Under the pieces are notes generated by a model, which saw nothing but the letters and a program-made list of their open reading frames with translations, was not told the DNA's origin and made no database searches. Shown here piece by piece: positions 14,563 to 47,048 of a DNA stretch of 64,000 bases. Position numbers and translations under genes: made by a program. Positions within the stretch are counted from its first letter, which is position 1, and the number at the start of each line of letters is the position of its first letter. The stretch is from sequence record SRR20825006_727; one strand, written 5' to 3'.

Positions 14563-15615
14563 ATGAATTTAACGAATAACGTATCCCGCATAAAACGCTC
14601 AATTTCAGAACTTGACCACGTCATTTCAGAACTCCGAGAATTAAAAAGTGCGTTCATTACCACAAAAGATGTTCCTTACCAATTTCACACCGCAATCGAT
14701 AACTTTGACGACTACGATCATTTAGAGCATTATTTTCCCATTGATCCATCAGCTCAAGTTCGGTTTAAAATTGGTCAATCAGAACCGTTACATTCTCTAA
14801 TACTGGGAAAGAACTTCGAAAAAATTTGTCTTTTCAATCAAAAAAATGGCGACTCAAACCGCTACCTCCATTATCAGATGGAAATCCAAAAAGATCAAGA
14901 ACGCTGTACGCTGCGGATTGGACTTTCCTGCCAAAAATTACGGCAAAAATCAAAAGACGATTTCATTCAACTCATCACTCATTTGGTTCGGCAAAAATTA
15001 CTCGTTATGACCCGACTGGAGATTGAAGATTTCGCAAACTGCATTATGGAGATTAATTCCGATGCTTTTTCTGGAATTTCGGCTTTCAAAGATCAATTCG
15101 AAGTGCTTACCGTTCCCGATTTCAAGCCCGTTGGCGGAATTCACTTTGTTCCTTCAATCATAACTCTCGATTTCTCACAAGACCATGCTAAGTTATTTGG
15201 AGGATTTGAGAAAATGGCAGTAGCGTTCTTATCTGCAATGGACACTTTCTTTGCCGATCAAGAGTATGTTGTTAAAGGCACAATTATCTGCGGAAATTGC
15301 TCAAAAATCTCCGAAGAAATTAAATCTATTCCCTACCAAACGGTAAGAATTCCCGTAAGCTTAACGTTAACGGATGAACATTTAGTTTCGCTAGGAAAAT
15401 CCTGGTCTAACATCAATGGAAAACGCAAGCGCATTGAAATTCGAAATTTTGCATGGAAAAATAGTAAGTCTACCTATACCGAAAATAGAATTACAATTAC
15501 ACCATTGGACGATGAAGCAGCCGTAGAAATAACCACTGAGTTTGACATCCGTGTAACCAACAAAGTTTTCAATGAAATCCACTCTACGCTTGTGCATGAA
15601 GGTGTGAGTTGTTGA
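14563..15615 (+). CDS. Hypothetical protein
   Basis: 350-aa ORF, no recognisable motif or signal peptide. Confidence 0.7.
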   Translation: MNLTNNVSRIKRSISELDHVISELRELKSAFITTKDVPYQFHTAIDNFDDYDHLEHYFPIDPSAQVRFKIGQSEPLHSLILGKNFEKICLFNQKNGDSNRYLHYQMEIQKDQERCTLRIGLSCQKLRQKSKDDFIQLITHLVRQKLLVMTRLEIEDFANCIMEINSDAFSGISAFKDQFEVLTVPDFKPVGGIHFVPSIITLDFSQDHAKLFGGFEKMAVAFLSAMDTFFADQEYVVKGTIICGNCSKISEEIKSIPYQTVRIPVSLTLTDEHLVSLGKSWSNINGKRKRIEIRNFAWKNSKSTYTENRITITPLDDEAAVEITTEFDIRVTNKVFNEIHSTLVHEGVSC

Positions 15616-15632
15616 TCTTTCAGAAGTTCGGA

Positions 15633-15694
15633 TTTCCGCATTAATAAAACCGTATTTTCCGAATTAACAATCTCGCCTTTTTTCTCTAGTTTAG
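15633..15694 (+). promoter_or_regulatory. Direct-repeat operator candidate and -7-like element upstream of the hydrolase-caspase operon
   Basis: TTTCCGCATTAATAA (15633-15647) and TTTCCGAATTAACAA (15656-15670); TAGTTTAG at 15687-15694. Confidence 0.4.
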
Positions 15695-15753
15695 TTTCTT
15701 ATCGTGAAGCACCTAACCATTTGTATTCTTGGTGTGATTTAAAGAAAATAACC

Positions 15754-17181
15754 ATGGAACTTAAAGATTTTGTAGTAAATATTGGTCCACAAGGAACATT
15801 TAAACCTTCAGGAAAGTATAACACCACTCCTTCGCATGTTGATGCGCTATTTGAAAGATATCATCAAGAGAATATCAAAAAAATTACGTTCTACTTTCAC
15901 GGTGGATTGGTAAATGAAAAAAGCGGGATGGAAACCGCCGTCGCTATGGAAAAAGTACTTTCAAGCGTTGGACAAACTCCCGTCTGTTTTGTGTGGGAAA
16001 CTGGATTATTTGAAACCGTTTCAACCAACATAGGTAAGATTTCAGAGACAAAACTATTCGAAAAACTTATTAAAATACTTACGAAAAAGCTCGCTTCAAA
16101 ACTAGGTTTTGCAGAGGCTGTTGGACGAGGTGCAGACGGAACATTATCCGAAGAAGAAATCGACAGTGAACTCATGCGAGAAGTTCCGTTCGAAAACTAT
16201 ACACTTGGCACGCTAGAAGCTTCGGGAAGAGGAATTAACCCAACAGATCACTTACCTAGCTCACCAGACGACCTCGAGGTAGAATTTATGTTCGAAGTAG
16301 AGAGTGACTTGGAACTAATGATGATTTTTCAAGATTCTGAACAAGCTGAATCACCCGATCCTGGAGCCCGTGGAATTTTCAGTTCTGCCGCATTGATAAA
16401 ACACCTAGCAAAAATCGCTTATCGGGTAATCAAGCGATTTATTGCTAAACGAGATCATGATTTCTACCCAACCGTTATTGAAGAATTGCTCAGAGAATTG
16501 TACATCGCGGATTTAGGAGCTTGGGTCTGGAATAATATGAAGGTTAAATCCGAAGAAATGTGGCAATCGAACACTGGAATCTTTGGAAAACATCAGCACG
16601 CAGGTCGTTATTTCTTGGATAGATTGATTGTTTTTCATCAAAAAAATCCAGAAGTCGAAATCAATTTAGTGGGACATAGCGCAGGATCCATTGCCATTTG
16701 CAATTTACTTAAAGCGAGTGCACAGCTGTCTCCATCGCTTAAATACAATTCAATTATTCTCATGGCACCTGCATGTAGAATTGACCTTTTTAAAAGTGAA
16801 GTAGTTGATCATCCTGAGCGTTTTAATTCTTTCAGAATGTTCACAATGACTGACGAAAATGAAAAGAAAGATAGACTTCTGCCTTACGTTTACACTCATT
16901 CTCTGCTGTATTTAGTTTCTGGAATTCTAGAAAATGAAGGAAACGACTTCGATGCGCAAATTCTCGGTTTAGAACGTCACATCGATCCTGATCAACAATA
17001 TCAATCGATTCCAGAAGTTATGGCGACGCATAAATTTCTTTTCGGAGAAGGTCAACAAAGAGTCGTGTTCTCGCTAAGTGAAGCTAATGCTGCGGATGGA
17101 TTAAAAACACATTCGCTCGCTCATGGCGACTTTGATGACGACGAAGAAACAATTAAAAGTATTCAATTCATGTTGAAATAG
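15754..17181 (+). CDS. Alpha/beta-hydrolase (lipase/esterase-like, DUF900-like) with large acidic insertion
   Basis: FYFHGGLV oxyanion region, LVGHSAGS nucleophile elbow, ILMAPA, C-terminal AHGDFDDD; no signal peptide; start MELKDF. Confidence 0.8.
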   Translation: MELKDFVVNIGPQGTFKPSGKYNTTPSHVDALFERYHQENIKKITFYFHGGLVNEKSGMETAVAMEKVLSSVGQTPVCFVWETGLFETVSTNIGKISETKLFEKLIKILTKKLASKLGFAEAVGRGADGTLSEEEIDSELMREVPFENYTLGTLEASGRGINPTDHLPSSPDDLEVEFMFEVESDLELMMIFQDSEQAESPDPGARGIFSSAALIKHLAKIAYRVIKRFIAKRDHDFYPTVIEELLRELYIADLGAWVWNNMKVKSEEMWQSNTGIFGKHQHAGRYFLDRLIVFHQKNPEVEINLVGHSAGSIAICNLLKASAQLSPSLKYNSIILMAPACRIDLFKSEVVDHPERFNSFRMFTMTDENEKKDRLLPYVYTHSLLYLVSGILENEGNDFDAQILGLERHIDPDQQYQSIPEVMATHKFLFGEGQQRVVFSLSEANAADGLKTHSLAHGDFDDDEETIKSIQFMLK

Positions 17182-17182
17182 T

Positions 17183-18196
17183 ATGATGGAAGATTTCGCA
17201 ATCGTAATAGGGATTAACGATTATATCCCGCCCAATGAATTTGGCTTGCGCACATTAAAAGGCGCAGTAAATGATGCCAATGCTTTTGCCGAATGGCTGA
17301 CCGATCCGTCTGGGGGAAATCTTCCTGAAGGAAACGTTCAAAAAATCATTTCCTCTCCTACTCCATTAAAACCATTTCAAGATGAAATTGATGATGGTTT
17401 TCTGGCCATTGAATCCGATGTGATCCAAAAAGGAGGAGCCGCTCGCCGACTCTATTTTTATTTTGCGGGGCATGGCTTAGGAACCTTGGAAAGCGCCATT
17501 GACACTGGGCTTTGTCTTGCCAACTGGACTGAAAAACGACGCGATTCGGCACTTTCCTCTGAATCCTATAAAGACCGGATCAAGCAGTACGGATATTTTG
17601 AAGAGATTCTGTTTATGGTCGACTGCTGCAGAAATACCAAAATTAACATTACTCCTCAAGGCCCTAAATTTTCCAGCATCACACCTGGAAGAAACTCTGG
17701 AAAGACAAAGCTATTTATGGCATACGCTACTCAATATCAAGATCAGTCCTACGAAGTAGAGTCCAACGGATCTGAAATGAGAGGAGCTTTCACGACAGCA
17801 CTGATTGACGCTTTGAATGGCGCGGCAGGAAAAAATGGACAACTTACACCGAATGATTTAAAGGATTATTTGTTCATCGAAACGCCTAAAATCGCTCAAA
17901 AAAATGGCTACAAGCAGATTCCTGAAATCTCGCATACATATCCCAATGACACGCTGCTTTTTACTTTCGAGAATAACGACACAAACGTCACCATTACATT
18001 CCTAGAAAGTCGTGAAAATCCCATCGAGTTGTACGACGGAAGTTACTCTCTGATTCAAACAATCGATCCAAAGGCGAATAGAACCAACGAATTACAGTTG
18101 GAAACAGGTTTGTATTTGTTAAAAGATACGGTCACAAGCGAGTTATTGCCATTCCAAGTTTCACCCACTCAAAGCACACACAATGTCACCTTCTGA
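17183..18196 (+). CDS. Caspase-like (peptidase C14) protease with C-terminal beta-sandwich domain
   Basis: AIVIGINDY...LKGAVNDA, YFAGHG (His), VDCCR (Cys), GAFTTALIDALNG, Q.P. Confidence 0.92.
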   Translation: MMEDFAIVIGINDYIPPNEFGLRTLKGAVNDANAFAEWLTDPSGGNLPEGNVQKIISSPTPLKPFQDEIDDGFLAIESDVIQKGGAARRLYFYFAGHGLGTLESAIDTGLCLANWTEKRRDSALSSESYKDRIKQYGYFEEILFMVDCCRNTKINITPQGPKFSSITPGRNSGKTKLFMAYATQYQDQSYEVESNGSEMRGAFTTALIDALNGAAGKNGQLTPNDLKDYLFIETPKIAQKNGYKQIPEISHTYPNDTLLFTFENNDTNVTITFLESRENPIELYDGSYSLIQTIDPKANRTNELQLETGLYLLKDTVTSELLPFQVSPTQSTHNVTF

Positions 18197-19796
18197 ATTG
18201 CTCCAAAAACACCTCATTTCCGTTCGAGTGGATGAAGAATTTATCCATTTGGTCAAACTATTTCTAATTGATTCAAAAAACAGAATGGTTCTGGCAAACT
18301 TTTCTTCTAACGAAAAATACGAATTTGAAGTAGACAAAGGTCTTTATACTTTTCGAATTGAAATTAGTGGAGAAATTAAGGATGAAATTATTGTGATTGA
18401 TGCATCAAAAAACATCCGAATCTCCAGTGAATATTCGGAAGAATCTGATACATTAATCATTCATCCACCGATGCAATATTCTTCGGCGCCTCTCAGTGGA
18501 ACGCATTCAAAAACATACAATTCTTCGCACGAATATTATACCTATCCAGCGATTGAAATTAGCAAAACAGATACTTTTTCATTAGAAAGTGAATCATCTG
18601 AAGACAGTAATTCCTCACTGTTTATATTTATTCGTTTTCCATCAGTAGAAAAATATCACGATCTAAAATCGCATTGGGAAAAACCGTTTTACGCAGATTT
18701 TGAACTTGTGGATGAATACGGTGAACAACTTGTTGATTTTAACACAAAAAACGGAGTCATTATCGATGAGCAATTTGGCTCTGTTGGCTTTAGCGCGAAA
18801 CTTCCGAACGGTATTTATTACTTGATTTATCGCGGCGATGACGCACGACAAATTCCGATTTACGTTTTCAAGAATTGGCATACGCAGTTCTTTCTAACGC
18901 TCGGCACGAAACCTCTTTTTGGAACAATTCGCATTTTTGTTTCTAATTCCCGTGCATTCAATCCAACGGAAAAAACTAACAAATACATCGATGTTCTCTT
19001 GGATAAACTCCAAAATAGAGATTACTCAATTGATCAACAATTGATTAACATTGCCGCAAGTGGTAAGTTTCAATCTCCCATGCTTGGACTCATTTGTTCG
19101 TACATTTATCTAAAAAGTAAAGAGACGAAAAGCGATCAATTGTTCTCTGTGATCACTAGGAACATGAGCAACTTAATCCTTCGCGAGAACGATGAGTCTC
19201 CTGATCTTTTTGCGCTCAAACTAATAGCTGCCGAACATTTCAATCGAGATTCAGCCGATGTCGATCTTTCAACTAAGCTCATTGGAACGCCCATGTTCCG
19301 TGTAGGATTTGAAGCTATTCAAAGAGCATCCGTATTTGATCCCAACTTAATTGATGAACGCGGAATTAATGACTTTATCACAGAATCGCTTTACTACGAT
19401 TCGCCGTTCAATACTTTTAAACCGATTCCTTTCTACAAAGCAACAAAACCATTGAGCGATTGGAATATTAAGTCTAGCATAGATGAATTGCCCAGGCTTG
19501 AAGAGATTCCAAAAGTCATGACGTTTCTTGATGCAAAAGATGCCTTTCTGGAAGAAAACGAAGAATCGTATATTTCGGATAAATTTGCCGTGAAGGTCAG
19601 TGCACTTTTTGATAACAATACACTGAAGCGCATTCGAGAATCTTCAGAAAACGTAAAAGCTGATGACTCTTGGGTAAAGTCTGCGATTGCCGATATTATT
19701 GTGGAAAATGATCAATTAACCATCAACGAAATTGCTGAAGACATTGGCGTTTCAGGAAACACGGTGACAAGGATCATTTCGAGCTGGAAGGAATAA
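18183..19796 (+). CDS. Hypothetical protein with beta-sandwich repeats and a C-terminal HTH
   Basis: 14-nt overlap with the caspase gene; C-terminal LTINEIAEDIGVSGNTVTRII. Confidence 0.75.
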   Translation: MSPSELLQKHLISVRVDEEFIHLVKLFLIDSKNRMVLANFSSNEKYEFEVDKGLYTFRIEISGEIKDEIIVIDASKNIRISSEYSEESDTLIIHPPMQYSSAPLSGTHSKTYNSSHEYYTYPAIEISKTDTFSLESESSEDSNSSLFIFIRFPSVEKYHDLKSHWEKPFYADFELVDEYGEQLVDFNTKNGVIIDEQFGSVGFSAKLPNGIYYLIYRGDDARQIPIYVFKNWHTQFFLTLGTKPLFGTIRIFVSNSRAFNPTEKTNKYIDVLLDKLQNRDYSIDQQLINIAASGKFQSPMLGLICSYIYLKSKETKSDQLFSVITRNMSNLILRENDESPDLFALKLIAAEHFNRDSADVDLSTKLIGTPMFRVGFEAIQRASVFDPNLIDERGINDFITESLYYDSPFNTFKPIPFYKATKPLSDWNIKSSIDELPRLEEIPKVMTFLDAKDAFLEENEESYISDKFAVKVSALFDNNTLKRIRESSENVKADDSWVKSAIADIIVENDQLTINEIAEDIGVSGNTVTRIISSWKE

Positions 19797-19826
19797 GGAA
19801 TTCAGTTGTTAGATGGCTTATTAGAT

Positions 19827-20294
19827 ATGAAAAAAACTGAATCCTACGCGAATCGTCTGAGAGAGGTAATTCTGAACGGAACATGGATCGCAAATACGAA
19901 TTACAAAGACCAATTGGAGCATTTAGATTGGAACCATGCCGTTTCCAAATTGGAAGGTTTCAATTCAGTTTCAATGTTGGCGCAACACATTCATTACTAC
20001 ATTAACGGAATCAACAATGTGTTCGATAAGGGAACGCTTGAAATCAGGGATAAATTCAGTTTCGATTTTCCACCAATAAACTCTCAAAACGAATGGGAAG
20101 CATTTTTGACTAAATTCTGGGAAGACACGGAACGTCTTGCTTCATCGATAGAACAAATGCCCGACGAAAAACTGAGTGAACATTTCGTTGATGAAAAATA
20201 CGGAACTTACCAGCGAAATCTTGACGGTATGATTGAACACAGTTACTATCATCTAGGTCAGCTTGTTCTGCTAAAGAAATTCGTTTCAAATTGA
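19827..20294 (+). CDS. DinB-superfamily protein
   Basis: NSV..LAQHIHYY and IEHSYYHLGQ metal-binding His pattern. Confidence 0.85.
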   Translation: MKKTESYANRLREVILNGTWIANTNYKDQLEHLDWNHAVSKLEGFNSVSMLAQHIHYYINGINNVFDKGTLEIRDKFSFDFPPINSQNEWEAFLTKFWEDTERLASSIEQMPDEKLSEHFVDEKYGTYQRNLDGMIEHSYYHLGQLVLLKKFVSN

Positions 20295-45893: not shown

Positions 45894-45905
45894 TAAAAAT
45901 TGATT

Positions 45906-47048
45906 ATGGAGTTCATCCAGCGAAAAATATTCGAAGAATTTACGAAGAAAGTAAGAGCAAATAAGGTCTTGATTCTATTGGGAGCTAGGCGTGTTGGCAA
46001 GACAGCACTCATTAAAAAGTATTTGACTACTCAAAATGAGAGTGACTATCTGTTGTTGAATGGAGAAGATTTATCTACTCATGATATGCTGGTAGAACGC
46101 ACGGTTAAGAATTATACTCGATTGATTGGTAAGCAAACCCTTCTTGTAATCGATGAAGCTCAGAAAATTCCAGACATCGGATTGAAATTAAAACTCATGA
46201 TTGATTCGATTGAGGGATTAAGAATTATAGCAACTGGCTCTTCCGTTTTTGATCTTGCCAATAAATTAGGAGAACCATTGTTAGGAAGATCAAACACTAT
46301 TCAATTATTTACACTCGGGCAAATCGAACTAAACAACGTAGAGAGGTATAAGGAAACCAGGGAAAAATTAGAGGAAAGGTTAATATTTGGGGGCTATCCT
46401 GAACTAGAGCAACTTGATGAGTGGGAAGAAAAGGTCAATTATCTCGACAATCTTGTAGGATCGAACCTGATTCGAGATATTCTAGAATTTGAAGGTGTGA
46501 AAAAAGCGGATAAAATAATGGATCTTCTGAAATTACTGGCTTTTCAAATCGGGCAAGAGGTAAACATTGATGAGCTGGCTAAAAACCTTAAAAACATCAG
46601 CAGAAATACTGTTGAACGATATCTCGACTTATTGGAAAAAGTCTTCATCATATATAAAGTAAGAGGATTCAGTAGGAACCTGCGAAAGGAAATCACAAAA
46701 TCAAACAGGTGGTACTTTTATGATAACGGTGTTCGAAATGCGATAATCCGAAATTTCGGACGGATCGATCTACGCATAGATATTGGAATGTTATGGGAAA
46801 ATTATTTAATGGCAGAACGAATAAAATACAATCATTACACCAGAAGAACCATTAATTACTATTTCTGGAGAACCTATGATCAACAAGAAATAGATTTAAT
46901 TGAAGAGGAAAATGGAAAATTGTCTGCATTTGAGTTTAAGTGGAGCGAAAAGAAAAAAGTGAGGGTTCCTGGTGGCTGGAAAAACGCCTATCCAGAAGCT
47001 TCATTTGAGGTTATTACACCATCCAATTATCTAGATTTCATTTCTTGA
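45906..47048 (+). CDS. AAA+ ATPase (AAA_14-like) with DUF4143 and C-terminal PD-(D/E)xK-like domain
   Basis: GARRVGKT Walker A, VIDEAQ Walker B, ATGSS, GGYP, YFYDNG, WENY, QEIDLI..AFEFK. Confidence 0.9.
   Translation: MEFIQRKIFEEFTKKVRANKVLILLGARRVGKTALIKKYLTTQNESDYLLLNGEDLSTHDMLVERTVKNYTRLIGKQTLLVIDEAQKIPDIGLKLKLMIDSIEGLRIIATGSSVFDLANKLGEPLLGRSNTIQLFTLGQIELNNVERYKETREKLEERLIFGGYPELEQLDEWEEKVNYLDNLVGSNLIRDILEFEGVKKADKIMDLLKLLAFQIGQEVNIDELAKNLKNISRNTVERYLDLLEKVFIIYKVRGFSRNLRKEITKSNRWYFYDNGVRNAIIRNFGRIDLRIDIGMLWENYLMAERIKYNHYTRRTINYYFWRTYDQQEIDLIEEENGKLSAFEFKWSEKKKVRVPGGWKNAYPEASFEVITPSNYLDFIS

Follow-up and report, generated by a model that had tools for sequence, protein, structure and literature searches.

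We analysed a 64,000-nucleotide stretch of DNA (hereafter the window; sequence record SRR20825006_727) from a Bacteroidota chromosome. The ORF listing of the window contains three co-oriented genes on the + strand:

15754..17181, + strand: alpha/beta-hydrolase, putative zymogen effector, 475 aa from the ATG (ORF and AF2 model)
17183..18196, + strand: C14 caspase/metacaspase-like protease, 337 aa (PF00656 and the PADLOC 'caspase' profile)
18183..19796, + strand: ORF3, 537 aa

The hydrolase stop codon ends at 17181 and the caspase gene starts at 17183, leaving a 1-nt gap, and the caspase and ORF3 genes overlap by 14 nt at positions 18183-18196. The longest frame of the hydrolase opens at an alternative TTG start at 15721, while the ATG at 15754 gives the 475-aa product. 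The shared orientation, the gap and the overlap had been reported in a preliminary description of the locus and were found at the same coordinates in the ORF listing. Direct reading of the translations also agreed with its statement that signal peptides are absent, with no hydrophobic leader at the N-termini of the hydrolase, the caspase or ORF3, and the GHSAG, FAGHG and DCCR motifs that it had named were present at the translated coordinates.

The first gene had been described as an alpha/beta-hydrolase. Pfam gave only sub-threshold alpha/beta-hydrolase matches for its product (Hydrolase_4, 16.9 bits vs 27), and DUF900 (PF05990) reached 15.2 bits against a gathering threshold of 20.5; PF05990 is a precomputed match in some homologues, and P0306 reaches 31.3 bits. 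The assignment was borne out by the AF2 model (pLDDT 89.2, pTM 0.89), which VIA-align superposed on 324 solved alpha/beta-hydrolase chains at Z of at least 8, with a dienelactone hydrolase as the top match (Z 12.9) and lipases, PLA1 and thioesterases also matched. A likeness to lipase effectors is plausible, and an ester or lipid is our leading guess for the substrate. The family is very large, with 696 homologues in one search and 3544 representative clusters (defined at 50% identity) at E <= 1e-3, and the best 150 of these 3544 clusters in the profile search were all of the ~480-aa type. The catalytic features are as follows:

15898..15906, + strand: putative oxyanion-hole motif HGG (His49-Gly50-Gly51), identical in all 46 aligned sequences
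16672..16686, + strand: GHSAG nucleophile elbow (Ser309), with G307, H308, S309 and G311 invariant
17122..17124, + strand: His457, putative catalytic His (in HGDFDDD), invariant in 46 of 46

HGG was also kept in plasmid-borne relatives and in relatives fused to a papain-like (C1) peptidase, and His457 was kept in all 9 sequences of a second comparison (window, plasmid, genome and C1-fused). Asp400, the presumed catalytic acid, is absent from both C1-fused relatives.

The alpha/beta core is interrupted by an insert of ~190 residues, and basic-small dipeptides at residues 125, 159 and 206 stand amid otherwise variable sequence:

16126..16131, + strand: Arg125-Gly126, predicted caspase cleavage site 1 (alignment and model)
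16228..16233, + strand: Arg159-Gly160, possible extra cleavage site, close clade only (alignment)
16369..16374, + strand: Arg206-Gly207, predicted caspase cleavage site 2 (alignment and model)
16129..16371, + strand: acidic middle segments, residues 126-206, predicted to be excised (net charge)

At site 125 the P1 residue was Arg in 43 and Lys in 3 of the 46 sequences, followed at P1' by Gly (39), Ser (5) or Ala (2); at site 206 it was Arg in 39 and Lys in 7, with Gly or Ser at P1' (Gly in 42). Site 125 lies within segment 122-127 and site 206 closes segment 197-206, and these two disordered loops are the sole regions of the hydrolase model with pLDDT <50. Site 159 was basic in 40 of 46 sequences (Arg 35, Lys 5; P1' Gly in 29 and Ser in 10), the surrounding residues 151-170 were modelled with pLDDT ~64-65, and the site was not kept in the plasmid relatives. 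The basic residue at site 125 was kept in all seven caspase-paired hydrolases from the window, plasmid and genome loci, and site 206 was kept in the caspase-paired plasmid relatives. The net charge of the window hydrolase is -7 over residues 126-159 and -12 over residues 160-206 (medians of -3 and -6 over 46 sequences). In the two C1-fused relatives HGG, GHSAG and the catalytic His are all present, but both sites are missing, site 125 being deleted in 2/2 and site 206 absent, and 61-66 residues replace the insert of 193-231 residues. Across these comparisons the insert and the basic sites co-varied with caspase pairing, and the papain-fused relatives, which lack the insert, provide a natural control.

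The product of the second gene matched Peptidase_C14 (PF00656; E 8.1e-14, 52.3 bits against a cut-off of 21.4) and the PADLOC 'caspase' profile (E 1.2e-21), and 131 homologues were collected. Its catalytic residues are:

17468..17476, + strand: Gly96-His97-Gly98, catalytic His (within FAGHG), invariant in 43 of 43
17621..17632, + strand: Asp147-Cys148-Cys149-Arg150, catalytic Cys motif, all four invariant in 43 of 43

D31, D147 and E191 are invariant acidic residues, and residues ~255-337 form a small, beta-rich C-terminal tail. The nearest solved sequences were metacaspases (metacaspase-9, Mca1 and MCA2; E 4.7e-5), in an alignment that covers only the first ~100 residues. With the metacaspases/orthocaspases (Peptidase C14B) the protease shares the Pfam C14 domain, the invariant His/Cys dyad and a D-x-C arrangement ahead of the catalytic Cys, and it differs in its DCCR motif, where metacaspases carry DSCHSG, and in the short beta-rich tail. 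Metacaspases cleave after Arg or Lys, and a basic P1 preference would likewise be expected of the window caspase. The protein consists of the C14 domain and the ~80-residue tail only, with no fused NTPase/repeat sensor of the VMAP, STAND or WD40 kinds, and no NTPase gene was found beside the trio. The EACC1-associated caspase (NCBIfam NF047832) was rejected as an assignment, with 52.2 bits against a curated cut-off of 140 and no EACC1-like small protein gene beside the caspase.

ORF3 was modelled by AF2 with pLDDT 82.3 and pTM 0.81 and was divided into three parts:

18183..19433, + strand: constant core, residues 1-417 (AF2 model and hhalign conservation)
19437..19577, + strand: disordered variable linker, residues 419-465 (pLDDT <50, no alignment consensus)
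19671..19790, + strand: C-terminal winged-helix/HTH, residues 497-536 (model, sub-threshold Pfam)

The core comprises two Ig-like beta-sandwiches (~9-93 and ~145-254) and a helical repeat (264-402), for which structural matches were generic only; ORF3 contains no NTPase and no known sensor domain. That the protein ends in an HTH, as previously described, was supported by the fold, with residues 497-536 modelled as three helices and a winged-helix match at Z 8.2 (rmsd 2.1, 64 residues). In Pfam, the HTH_24 match (E 5.3e-4, 20.0 bits) fell below the cut-off of 21.9. Within this domain R530 is invariant and W497, I517 and T527 are nearly so, and the tail gave weak PDB matches to Z-alpha and HTH regulators. 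ORF3 homology was detected by hhalign at further loci (L024 100%, L025 99.9%, L031 99.5%, L019 95.6%, L033 90.6% and L028 85%). The tail is an HTH in the Bacteroidota clade and Trypsin_2 plus PLDc_2 in L025, while no tail domain was recognisable in L024, L031, L028 and L033. All 3 full-length matches to the ORF3 profile in 401 genomes lay within trio loci, and the 14-nt overlap with the caspase gene was retained in Rhizobium, Sinorhizobium and Mesorhizobium plasmids. Moreover, in one genome a caspase and an ORF3-like region are fused in a single protein of 872 aa; the ORF3-like region has the SSHEY and SPMLG motifs in common with ORF3, in a weak alignment (prob 44%, E 2.4e-4). The conserved adjacency, the overlap kept across phyla and this fusion support the view that ORF3 goes with the caspase. 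The new part of the cassette is ORF3, a putative caspase partner from a family not yet described.

The trio recurs in two related genomes, L001 and L002. Among 401 sampled Bacteroidota genomes the hydrolase was found in 8; the caspase gene follows it directly in seven of these, and in the eighth a papain-like peptidase is fused to the hydrolase instead. A hydrolase match was present in 17 plasmid records, 8 of which also had a caspase match within ~350 bp. A Cytophagales plasmid of 45 kb and Rhizobium megaplasmids likewise carry the cassette, some of the plasmids being large and symbiotic. Because the same order and spacing recur in unrelated genomic contexts and in two phyla, the arrangement of the trio is not due to chance, and co-occurrence in other genomes, which the preliminary description had proposed as a check, was thus observed. 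The cassette is sparsely distributed (8/401), its flanks differ at each occurrence, its plasmid copies adjoin IS elements and the L002 copy lies inside an integrase/recombinase/TrwB element, indicating that it is horizontally mobile. The flanks of the window copy contained no integrase, prophage or known defence gene, and housekeeping genes surround most chromosomal copies; the suggested enrichment in defence islands was not seen around the chromosomal copies. PADLOC recognised the caspase but neither the hydrolase nor ORF3, and no phage records held the hydrolase. The neighbours of the plasmid copies include antirepressors, papain-like proteases, nuclease-trypsin fusions and PLD nucleases.

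The trio had not been recognised as a named system in the preliminary description, but the hydrolase-caspase pairing has been published before. It was first noted in VMAP/MoxR-vWA systems by Kaur et al. 2020 (eLife; PMC7159879), according to whom a caspase in VMAP systems always has an alpha/beta hydrolase neighbour. In the preprint of Evans et al. 2025 (bioRxiv; PMC12642450), LcCaspase of Lysobacter capsici cuts LcHydrolase, which has 161 homologues, at two Arg-Gly (R-G) sites, and the N and C fragments together kill E. coli. As set out there, that system likewise has an alpha/beta-hydrolase gene directly beside a caspase-like protease gene, two conserved Arg-Gly sites bracketing a middle fragment, an N piece with the first strands and a C piece with the nucleophile, and it is a mobile module that recombines with different partners; the likeness is one of architecture and motif. 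The window hydrolase is longer than that of the preprint (475 vs ~300 aa), as are its predicted N fragment (125 vs 73 aa) and middle fragment (81 vs 44 aa), and a third basic site occurs in its close clade, unlike in LcHydrolase. The caspase described here is short (337 aa), without the WD40, STAND or VMAP fusion of the published versions, and is accompanied instead by the separate, conserved 537-aa ORF3. The hosts are Bacteroidota and Alphaproteobacteria, whereas Evans et al. name Actinobacteria and Pseudomonadota, and the main text of PMC12642450 makes no mention of terms beginning with Bacteroid, of helix-turn-helix or of DUF900.

The adjacency of the genes, the conserved dipeptides and the Lysobacter precedent lend good support to the earlier suggestion that the caspase may be the switch and the hydrolase a zymogen effector. 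We propose that the hydrolase would be made as an inactive zymogen, its core (HGG, Ser309 and His457) being broken by the ~190-residue insert. On activation by a presumed trigger, the caspase (His97, Cys148/149) would cut after Arg125 and Arg206, and in the close clade perhaps also after Arg159, probably with the help of ORF3, excising the inhibitory insert from the dormant hydrolase. The acidic middle segments would be released, and pieces 1-125 and 207-475 would form an active hydrolase that then damages the cell. ORF3 would be the dedicated partner of the caspase, with a core that most likely binds the protease and controls the time of firing; it may stand in for the STAND, WD40 or VMAP sensors that published versions carry on the protease itself, and its HTH tail would be a clade-specific add-on. 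The trio looks like a cell-death or defence module, and we lean, by a modest degree, towards reading it as a compact, horizontally mobile one in which a protease gates cell death or defence through a zymogen hydrolase, with ORF3 as the caspase partner.

A sensor role for ORF3 is suggested by this scheme, but its variable part is the C-terminal tail rather than the core, so that ORF3 could also be a second output controlled by the caspase. The core would then dock on the protease, and a cut in the linker (419-465) would free the C-terminal module, in this case a DNA-binding HTH and in Mesorhizobium a trypsin with a PLD nuclease, so that a transcriptional response and the hydrolase are both switched on while the trigger is sensed elsewhere, for example by the caspase. 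The constancy of the core beside a varying tail and the ~47-residue linker of pLDDT <50 before the HTH are consistent with this, and the introduction of PMC12642450 cites CRISPR-linked proteases that release sigma/anti-sigma factors (Csx30, CalpT). However, ORF3 has no conserved Arg/Lys-Gly site: each of the 12 positions with a basic share of 80% or more precedes a hydrophobic, polar or charged residue or a proline, and none lies in the linker, which is itself not conserved; in several homologues, moreover, the tail domain is missing altogether. We consider a second output unlikely. Equally doubtful is its broader form, in which the core is a new kind of constant component, free of any NTPase, that is coupled to metacaspase-like proteases of different phyla, with C-terminal modules that can be swapped (HTH, or trypsin with PLD nuclease) and likewise exchangeable effectors upstream of the caspase (alpha/beta hydrolase, S8 peptidase and others). 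If it were true, one proteolytic event would arm the hydrolase and free a DNA-binding domain, giving a bacterial caspase with two outputs, enzymatic and transcriptional.

The cassette might also serve no immune function, acting in regulated proteolysis and lipolysis for stress, development or programmed death, or as an addiction/competition module that stabilises plasmids or islands. The housekeeping surroundings of the window copy and most other chromosomal copies, without defence neighbours, and the copies beside IS elements on large symbiotic plasmids would fit such a role, and stress-response functions of protease-effector modules are raised in the discussion of Evans et al. (PMC12642450). 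We hold this to be rather improbable, as a sparse and patchy spread over two phyla, in changing surroundings, is what conflict systems typically show, the plasmid neighbours listed above speak against it, and published members of such modules act in anti-phage systems (PMC12642450). Least probable of all, and very unlikely in our view, is that the HTH protein is a plain operon regulator and that the caspase and hydrolase are independent, with other proteins of the cell or of a phage as the caspase's targets, as for effector-less caspases and type IV Thoeris. ORF3 does end in an HTH, related caspases act without a dedicated effector, as in the TIR plus caspase pair of L029, and the discussion of Evans et al. 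(PMC12642450) includes an effector-less E. coli caspase; but most of the distant ORF3 homologues lack the HTH yet keep the 417-residue core, the hydrolase insert and basic sites follow caspase pairing, and the hydrolase and caspase genes are almost always neighbours.

Control of death effectors by proteases has recently come to light as a widespread principle of bacterial immunity, and in the published alpha/beta-hydrolase example the sensor is fused to the protease. The present cassette extends the caspase-hydrolase module to Bacteroidota and rhizobial plasmids, and its ATPase-less ORF3 family may reveal the way in which caspases of this kind are regulated. The gated-zymogen model names individual residues for the predicted cleavage sites, the catalytic positions and the fragment ends, which makes it directly testable. 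Bacterial gasdermin-protease systems similarly place a protease beside a latent death effector released by cleavage, as is predicted here, but the effector in the window is an enzyme with catalytic Ser and His rather than a pore former, and neither Pfam nor PADLOC gave a gasdermin match among the five genes at 14563-20294. Type IV Thoeris pairs a TIR protein with a caspase-like protease (Rousset et al. 2025, cited in PMC13069673); no TIR match was found among the window ORFs scanned, and the window caspase differs in having a dedicated hydrolase neighbour and ORF3. The caspase families are nevertheless related, with a TIR-adjacent caspase on a Proteus plasmid matching at 31.7% over 67% of the query.

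The three genes of the cassette are encoded on one strand:

15754-17181 (+), ORF1, hydrolase, 475 aa if translated from the ATG (TTG 15721 opens the longest frame)
17183-18196 (+), ORF2, caspase-like protease, 337 aa
18183-19796 (+), ORF3, protein of 537 aa

These ORF coordinates bore out the three co-oriented genes with a 1-nt gap and a 14-nt overlap reported in the preliminary description, and the motifs quoted there were found at the expected codons of the window; together with the Pfam C14 match and the folds of the models, they confirmed the observation as a whole. Otherwise the window consists of ordinary Bacteroidota chromosomal DNA, encoding T9SS-tailed proteins, BshC, RimM, S16 and chorismate synthase, and no integrase or recognised defence gene was found near the trio in the window. 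When the trio was checked for defence families with PADLOC, the 'caspase' profile was recognised and no other profile matched. A promoter and terminator scan was set aside as uninformative: it returned fewer sites than shuffled sequences did, and the sigma-70 consensus is unsuited to Bacteroidota.

Two ORFs flank the trio:

14563-15615 (+), 350-aa ORF just 5' of the trio, no family
19806-20294 (+), DinB-like 162-aa ORF, beginning 10 nt after ORF3

The sole match of the upstream ORF was SLATT_4, weak and far below threshold (E 0.015, 15 bits vs 55), and the DinB and DUF1572 matches of the downstream ORF, which is not conserved beside the trio elsewhere, were also sub-threshold. Both were rejected as cassette members because neither has a counterpart in L001 or L002, the loci of two related genomes holding the trio. 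The window also carries, at 45900-47048 (+), a gene for an AAA_14 and DUF4143 ATPase; ATPases of this type are frequent in accessory regions.

Homologues were sought in a collection of 5.8 billion proteins, which yielded 62 for ORF3, 131 for the caspase and 696 for the hydrolase (the best 120 listed), and several of the named records bore adjoining locus tags (GC194_14515/14525, OA88_20485/20495, JWO03_2399/2400/2401 and HOP30_21260/21265). As a proxy for co-occurrence, the three sets of homologues were also compared by the length of their longest contig: at least 25 of 29 ORF3 contigs of 10 kb or more had a length in common with a hydrolase or caspase match, but this proxy misses known cases such as L001 and was set aside. 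A related-locus search with the single ORF3 protein sequence returned two loci, and the two related genomes (L001 and L002) carry the same three genes with equal spacing and different flanks. The hydrolase was present in 8 of 401 sampled genomes of the same phylum. In seven of these eight a caspase gene lies directly after it, one locus ending at the contig edge, while the eighth encodes a fusion of the hydrolase with a papain-like C1 peptidase. Wherever the contig extends past the caspase in these genomes, the next gene encodes a third protein, of 473-565 aa, which was identified as ORF3 by BLASTP in two loci (L018 and L017) and by profile comparison in another (L019; prob 95.6%, E 1e-8). The survey of gene neighbourhoods, which had been proposed as a check, therefore found the co-occurrence: the trio recurs as a conserved unit, and hydrolase and caspase are adjacent in all but one of the hydrolase-positive genomes. 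At a further locus (L022), the caspase gene encodes 872 aa, and its product shares SSHEY and SPMLG motifs with ORF3 and is probably a caspase-ORF3 fusion, judging from a weak alignment of residues 394-704 with the ORF3 profile (prob 44%, E 2.4e-4). The chromosomal Bacteroidota copies mostly have housekeeping genes as neighbours, and one is flanked by an integrase, a serine recombinase and a TrwB-like gene. The hydrolase was not found in phage records.

At the sequence level, ORF1 matched alpha/beta-hydrolase families of Pfam only below threshold. VIA-align matched its AlphaFold2 model (pLDDT 89.2, pTM 0.89) to 324 chains of solved alpha/beta hydrolases (Z of at least 8), which bears out the fold originally assigned to it; dienelactone hydrolase (Z 12.9, rmsd 4.1, 203 residues) ranked first, ahead of phospholipase A1, lipases, thioesterases and PGAP1. 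Foldseek against the PDB returned nothing at E <=1e-3 for this model. H49-G50-G51, G307-H308-S309-x-G311, D400 and H457 were invariant in the hydrolase alignment (n=46). In the model, a mostly helical insert of ~190 residues separates the second core strand from the nucleophile strand, and its variable, acidic part contains three dipeptides of a basic and a small residue.

Residues at the three basic-small dipeptides of the hydrolase insert (n=46)
Site 125: P1 R 43, K 3; P1' G 39, S 5, A 2
Site 159: P1 R 35, K 5; P1' G 29, S 10
Site 206: P1 R 39, K 7; P1' G 42

The pLDDT of the hydrolase model fell below 50 at two segments only, 122-127 and 197-206, each of which holds one of these dipeptides (125 and 206, respectively). 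The stretches that separate the dipeptides are acidic, their net charges being -7 and -12 in the window protein, with medians of -3 and -6 across the alignment. Caspase-paired hydrolases of Cytophagales and Alphaproteobacteria retain sites 125 and 206, with Gly, Ser, Thr or Ala after the basic residue, but not site 159. A natural control is provided by two relatives that form fusions with C1 peptidases: they retain HGG, GHSAG and the catalytic His, but only 61-66 residues stand where the insert of 193-231 residues would be, and sites 125 and 206 are both absent, indicating that the insert and the basic sites accompany caspase pairing. The hydrolase thus has the look of a zymogen that carries its own predicted cleavage sites.

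Several relatives of the hydrolase have other architectures:

L023:826-2838 (-) and L026:4606-6660 (+), the two C1-fused relatives, papain-like C1 peptidase plus hydrolase, 670-684 aa
H11-H16, six plasmid records, 'C1 family peptidase' fusions to the hydrolase family
P0258, 909-aa protein from the hydrolase profile search, metallo-beta-lactamase-fold domain (Lactamase_B, 33-112) and hydrolase (427-908)
L021:7728-9680 (+), hydrolase homologue of 650 aa, extended N-terminally by ~190 residues

The two domains of P0258 correspond to two of the protease-activated effector types described by Evans et al. (PMC12642450). The extension at L021 begins like a signal peptide and is partly masked (reads X), and a caspase ORF follows this hydrolase ORF with an 11-nt overlap.

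The assignment of ORF2 to the C14 proteases was upheld by Pfam (Peptidase_C14, 52.3 bits vs a cut-off of 21.4), while its score for the NCBIfam 'caspase, EACC1-associated type' was far under the cut-off (52.2 vs 140 bits). H97, D147, C148, C149, R150, D31 and E191 were invariant in the caspase alignment (n=43). The nearest solved sequences were plant, yeast and trypanosome metacaspases (E 4.7e-5 to 7.6e-3). Metacaspases cleave after Arg or Lys, and the basic P1 residues in the hydrolase agree with this specificity. We consider it likely that the caspase cuts the hydrolase at the predicted sites. A sandwich domain common to the C-terminal tail of the caspase and the first sandwich of ORF3 was considered and rejected, the match being too weak (prob 42%, E 2.6e-4).

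The hydrolase-caspase pair is of an already known kind. Kaur et al. 2020 (PMC7159879) described the caspase in VMAP ternary systems as always occurring with a neighbouring alpha/beta hydrolase, and Evans et al. (bioRxiv, Nov 2025, PMC12642450) reported that LcCaspase of Lysobacter capsici cleaves LcHydrolase at Arg73 and Arg117, that the R|G motif is conserved across 161 LcHydrolase homologues, and that the N and C fragments kill E. coli with exact junctions required. According to the same preprint, the substrate of LcHydrolase is unknown, and the associated proteases are fused to WD40 or STAND sensors. The window cassette follows the logic of LcHydrolase/LcCaspase in gene pairing, motif and fragment order, but differs in hydrolase size and in having a third site; the main difference is that its caspase is short and is followed by a separate, conserved and NTPase-free partner, ORF3. 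Literature searches for the trio returned the Evans preprint alone for the hydrolase-caspase pair and no paper describing an ORF3-like partner. The main text of PMC12642450 makes no mention of helix-turn-helix, DUF900 or terms beginning with 'Bacteroid', and further members, Bacteroidota ones among them, may appear in its supplements. The variant with three genes, including the ORF3 family, is new. The earlier remark that the trio was not recognised as a named system fits this variant; the hydrolase-caspase pair is already published (PMC7159879, PMC12642450).

What the analysis shows directly is the architecture, conservation, co-occurrence, fusions and folds; we infer the following biochemical steps, and a possible anti-phage role. 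ORF3 would hold or license the caspase; upon a trigger, the caspase would cut the hydrolase after Arg125 and Arg206, the acidic insert would leave the cleaved hydrolase, and the N and C pieces would form an active Ser-His hydrolase, by which the cell would be killed or arrested. We lean slightly towards this overall model of a caspase-gated hydrolase with ORF3 as partner. The mechanism put forward in the preliminary description, with the caspase as the switch of a zymogen hydrolase, is largely in line with the recently published sister system.

The AF2 model of ORF3 (pLDDT 82.3, pTM 0.81) comprises the following parts:

residues ~9-93 and ~145-254, two beta-sandwich domains
residues 264-402, helical repeat
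residues 419-465, disordered linker
residues 497-536, three-helix C-terminal domain

The HTH previously noted at the end of ORF3 was sub-threshold by Pfam, but was modelled as the three-helix domain with winged-helix matches. Fold searches gave only generic matches (Ig-like, TPR/HEAT-like and winged-helix): Foldseek against the PDB found tandem Ig matches (best E 1.3e-4, TM 0.14), VIA-align gave middling Z scores (at most 8.2) against helical repeats and winged helices, and the PDB sequence search gave weak HTH matches. The ORF3 core (1-417) is conserved and the tail varies, and no conserved basic-Gly site was found. The ORF3 profile matched 31 of the 401 Bacteroidota genomes at E <=1e-3. Only three matches were full-length, all within trio loci, while the other 28 genomes (e.g. 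L039-L047) matched in the HTH alone, with profile positions ~450-530 aligning to proteins of ~345-390 aa; the ORF3 tail is therefore a common HTH type. An Atlas feature-based search returned unnamed ~450-aa clusters of Actinomycetota and Pseudomonadota (score 0.91), which we regard as no more than a lead.

In a tblastn search of 72,556 plasmids, the hydrolase matched 17 records and the caspase 20, and in eight records the two matches were at most ~350 bp apart. A 45-kb plasmid of Chondrinema litorale carries the full trio adjoining an IS5 transposase, a papain-like protease and an antirepressor, its third gene matching ORF3 with prob 100% (E 3e-40). On a Rhizobium leguminosarum megaplasmid, a hydrolase of 496 aa and a caspase of 352 aa are accompanied by an ORF3 homologue of 576 aa (prob 99.5%, E 2e-22) with the same 14-nt overlap. 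Two other rhizobial plasmids carry a caspase and ORF3-like pair, also with a 14-nt overlap, behind a different upstream gene, an S8 peptidase on one (L033) and an unrelated 452-aa protein on the other (L028). These varied combinations indicate that the hydrolase-caspase and caspase-ORF3 pairs behave as recombining modules, and the plasmid records extend the cassette to a second phylum and to mobile DNA. Three of the plasmid loci are set out here:

L025:9522-13871 (+), Mesorhizobium onobrychidis pOM4, 1449-aa protein after hydrolase and caspase
L033:3207-7572, Mesorhizobium huakuii plasmid p_2, S8 serine peptidase replacing the hydrolase before the caspase and ORF3-like pair
L028:8635-10560 (+), Sinorhizobium mexicanum plasmid, fusion of a DNA/RNA non-specific endonuclease with a trypsin domain

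The pOM4 protein has an N-terminal ORF3 core (prob 99.9%, E 1.4e-34), after which come a trypsin-like peptidase and a PLD nuclease domain; the next gene encodes another, separate trypsin-like peptidase, and IS21 lies upstream. Transposases are found alongside the M. huakuii locus, and the S. mexicanum endonuclease-trypsin gene is directly downstream of a caspase and ORF3-like pair without an alpha/beta hydrolase. Three candidates were rejected: the pYEATS-containing third gene of Sinorhizobium meliloti, whose likeness to ORF3 was not significant (prob 2.5%), and, as Lc-type hydrolases, a 306-aa protein encoded ahead of a giant caspase of Nostoc (L035) and the 452-aa protein that precedes the S. 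mexicanum caspase, both unrelated to the hydrolase.

Related caspase genes were also observed in other settings. On Proteus penneri plasmid pPp47 (L029), a TIR-domain gene lies immediately before the caspase gene, the type IV Thoeris arrangement, and this pair adjoins Tn7-like transposition genes, with aminoglycoside-resistance genes nearby. On Bacillus mycoides plasmid p539 (L034), the caspase gene is flanked by a P-loop NTPase gene and by a retron St85 effector and reverse transcriptase.
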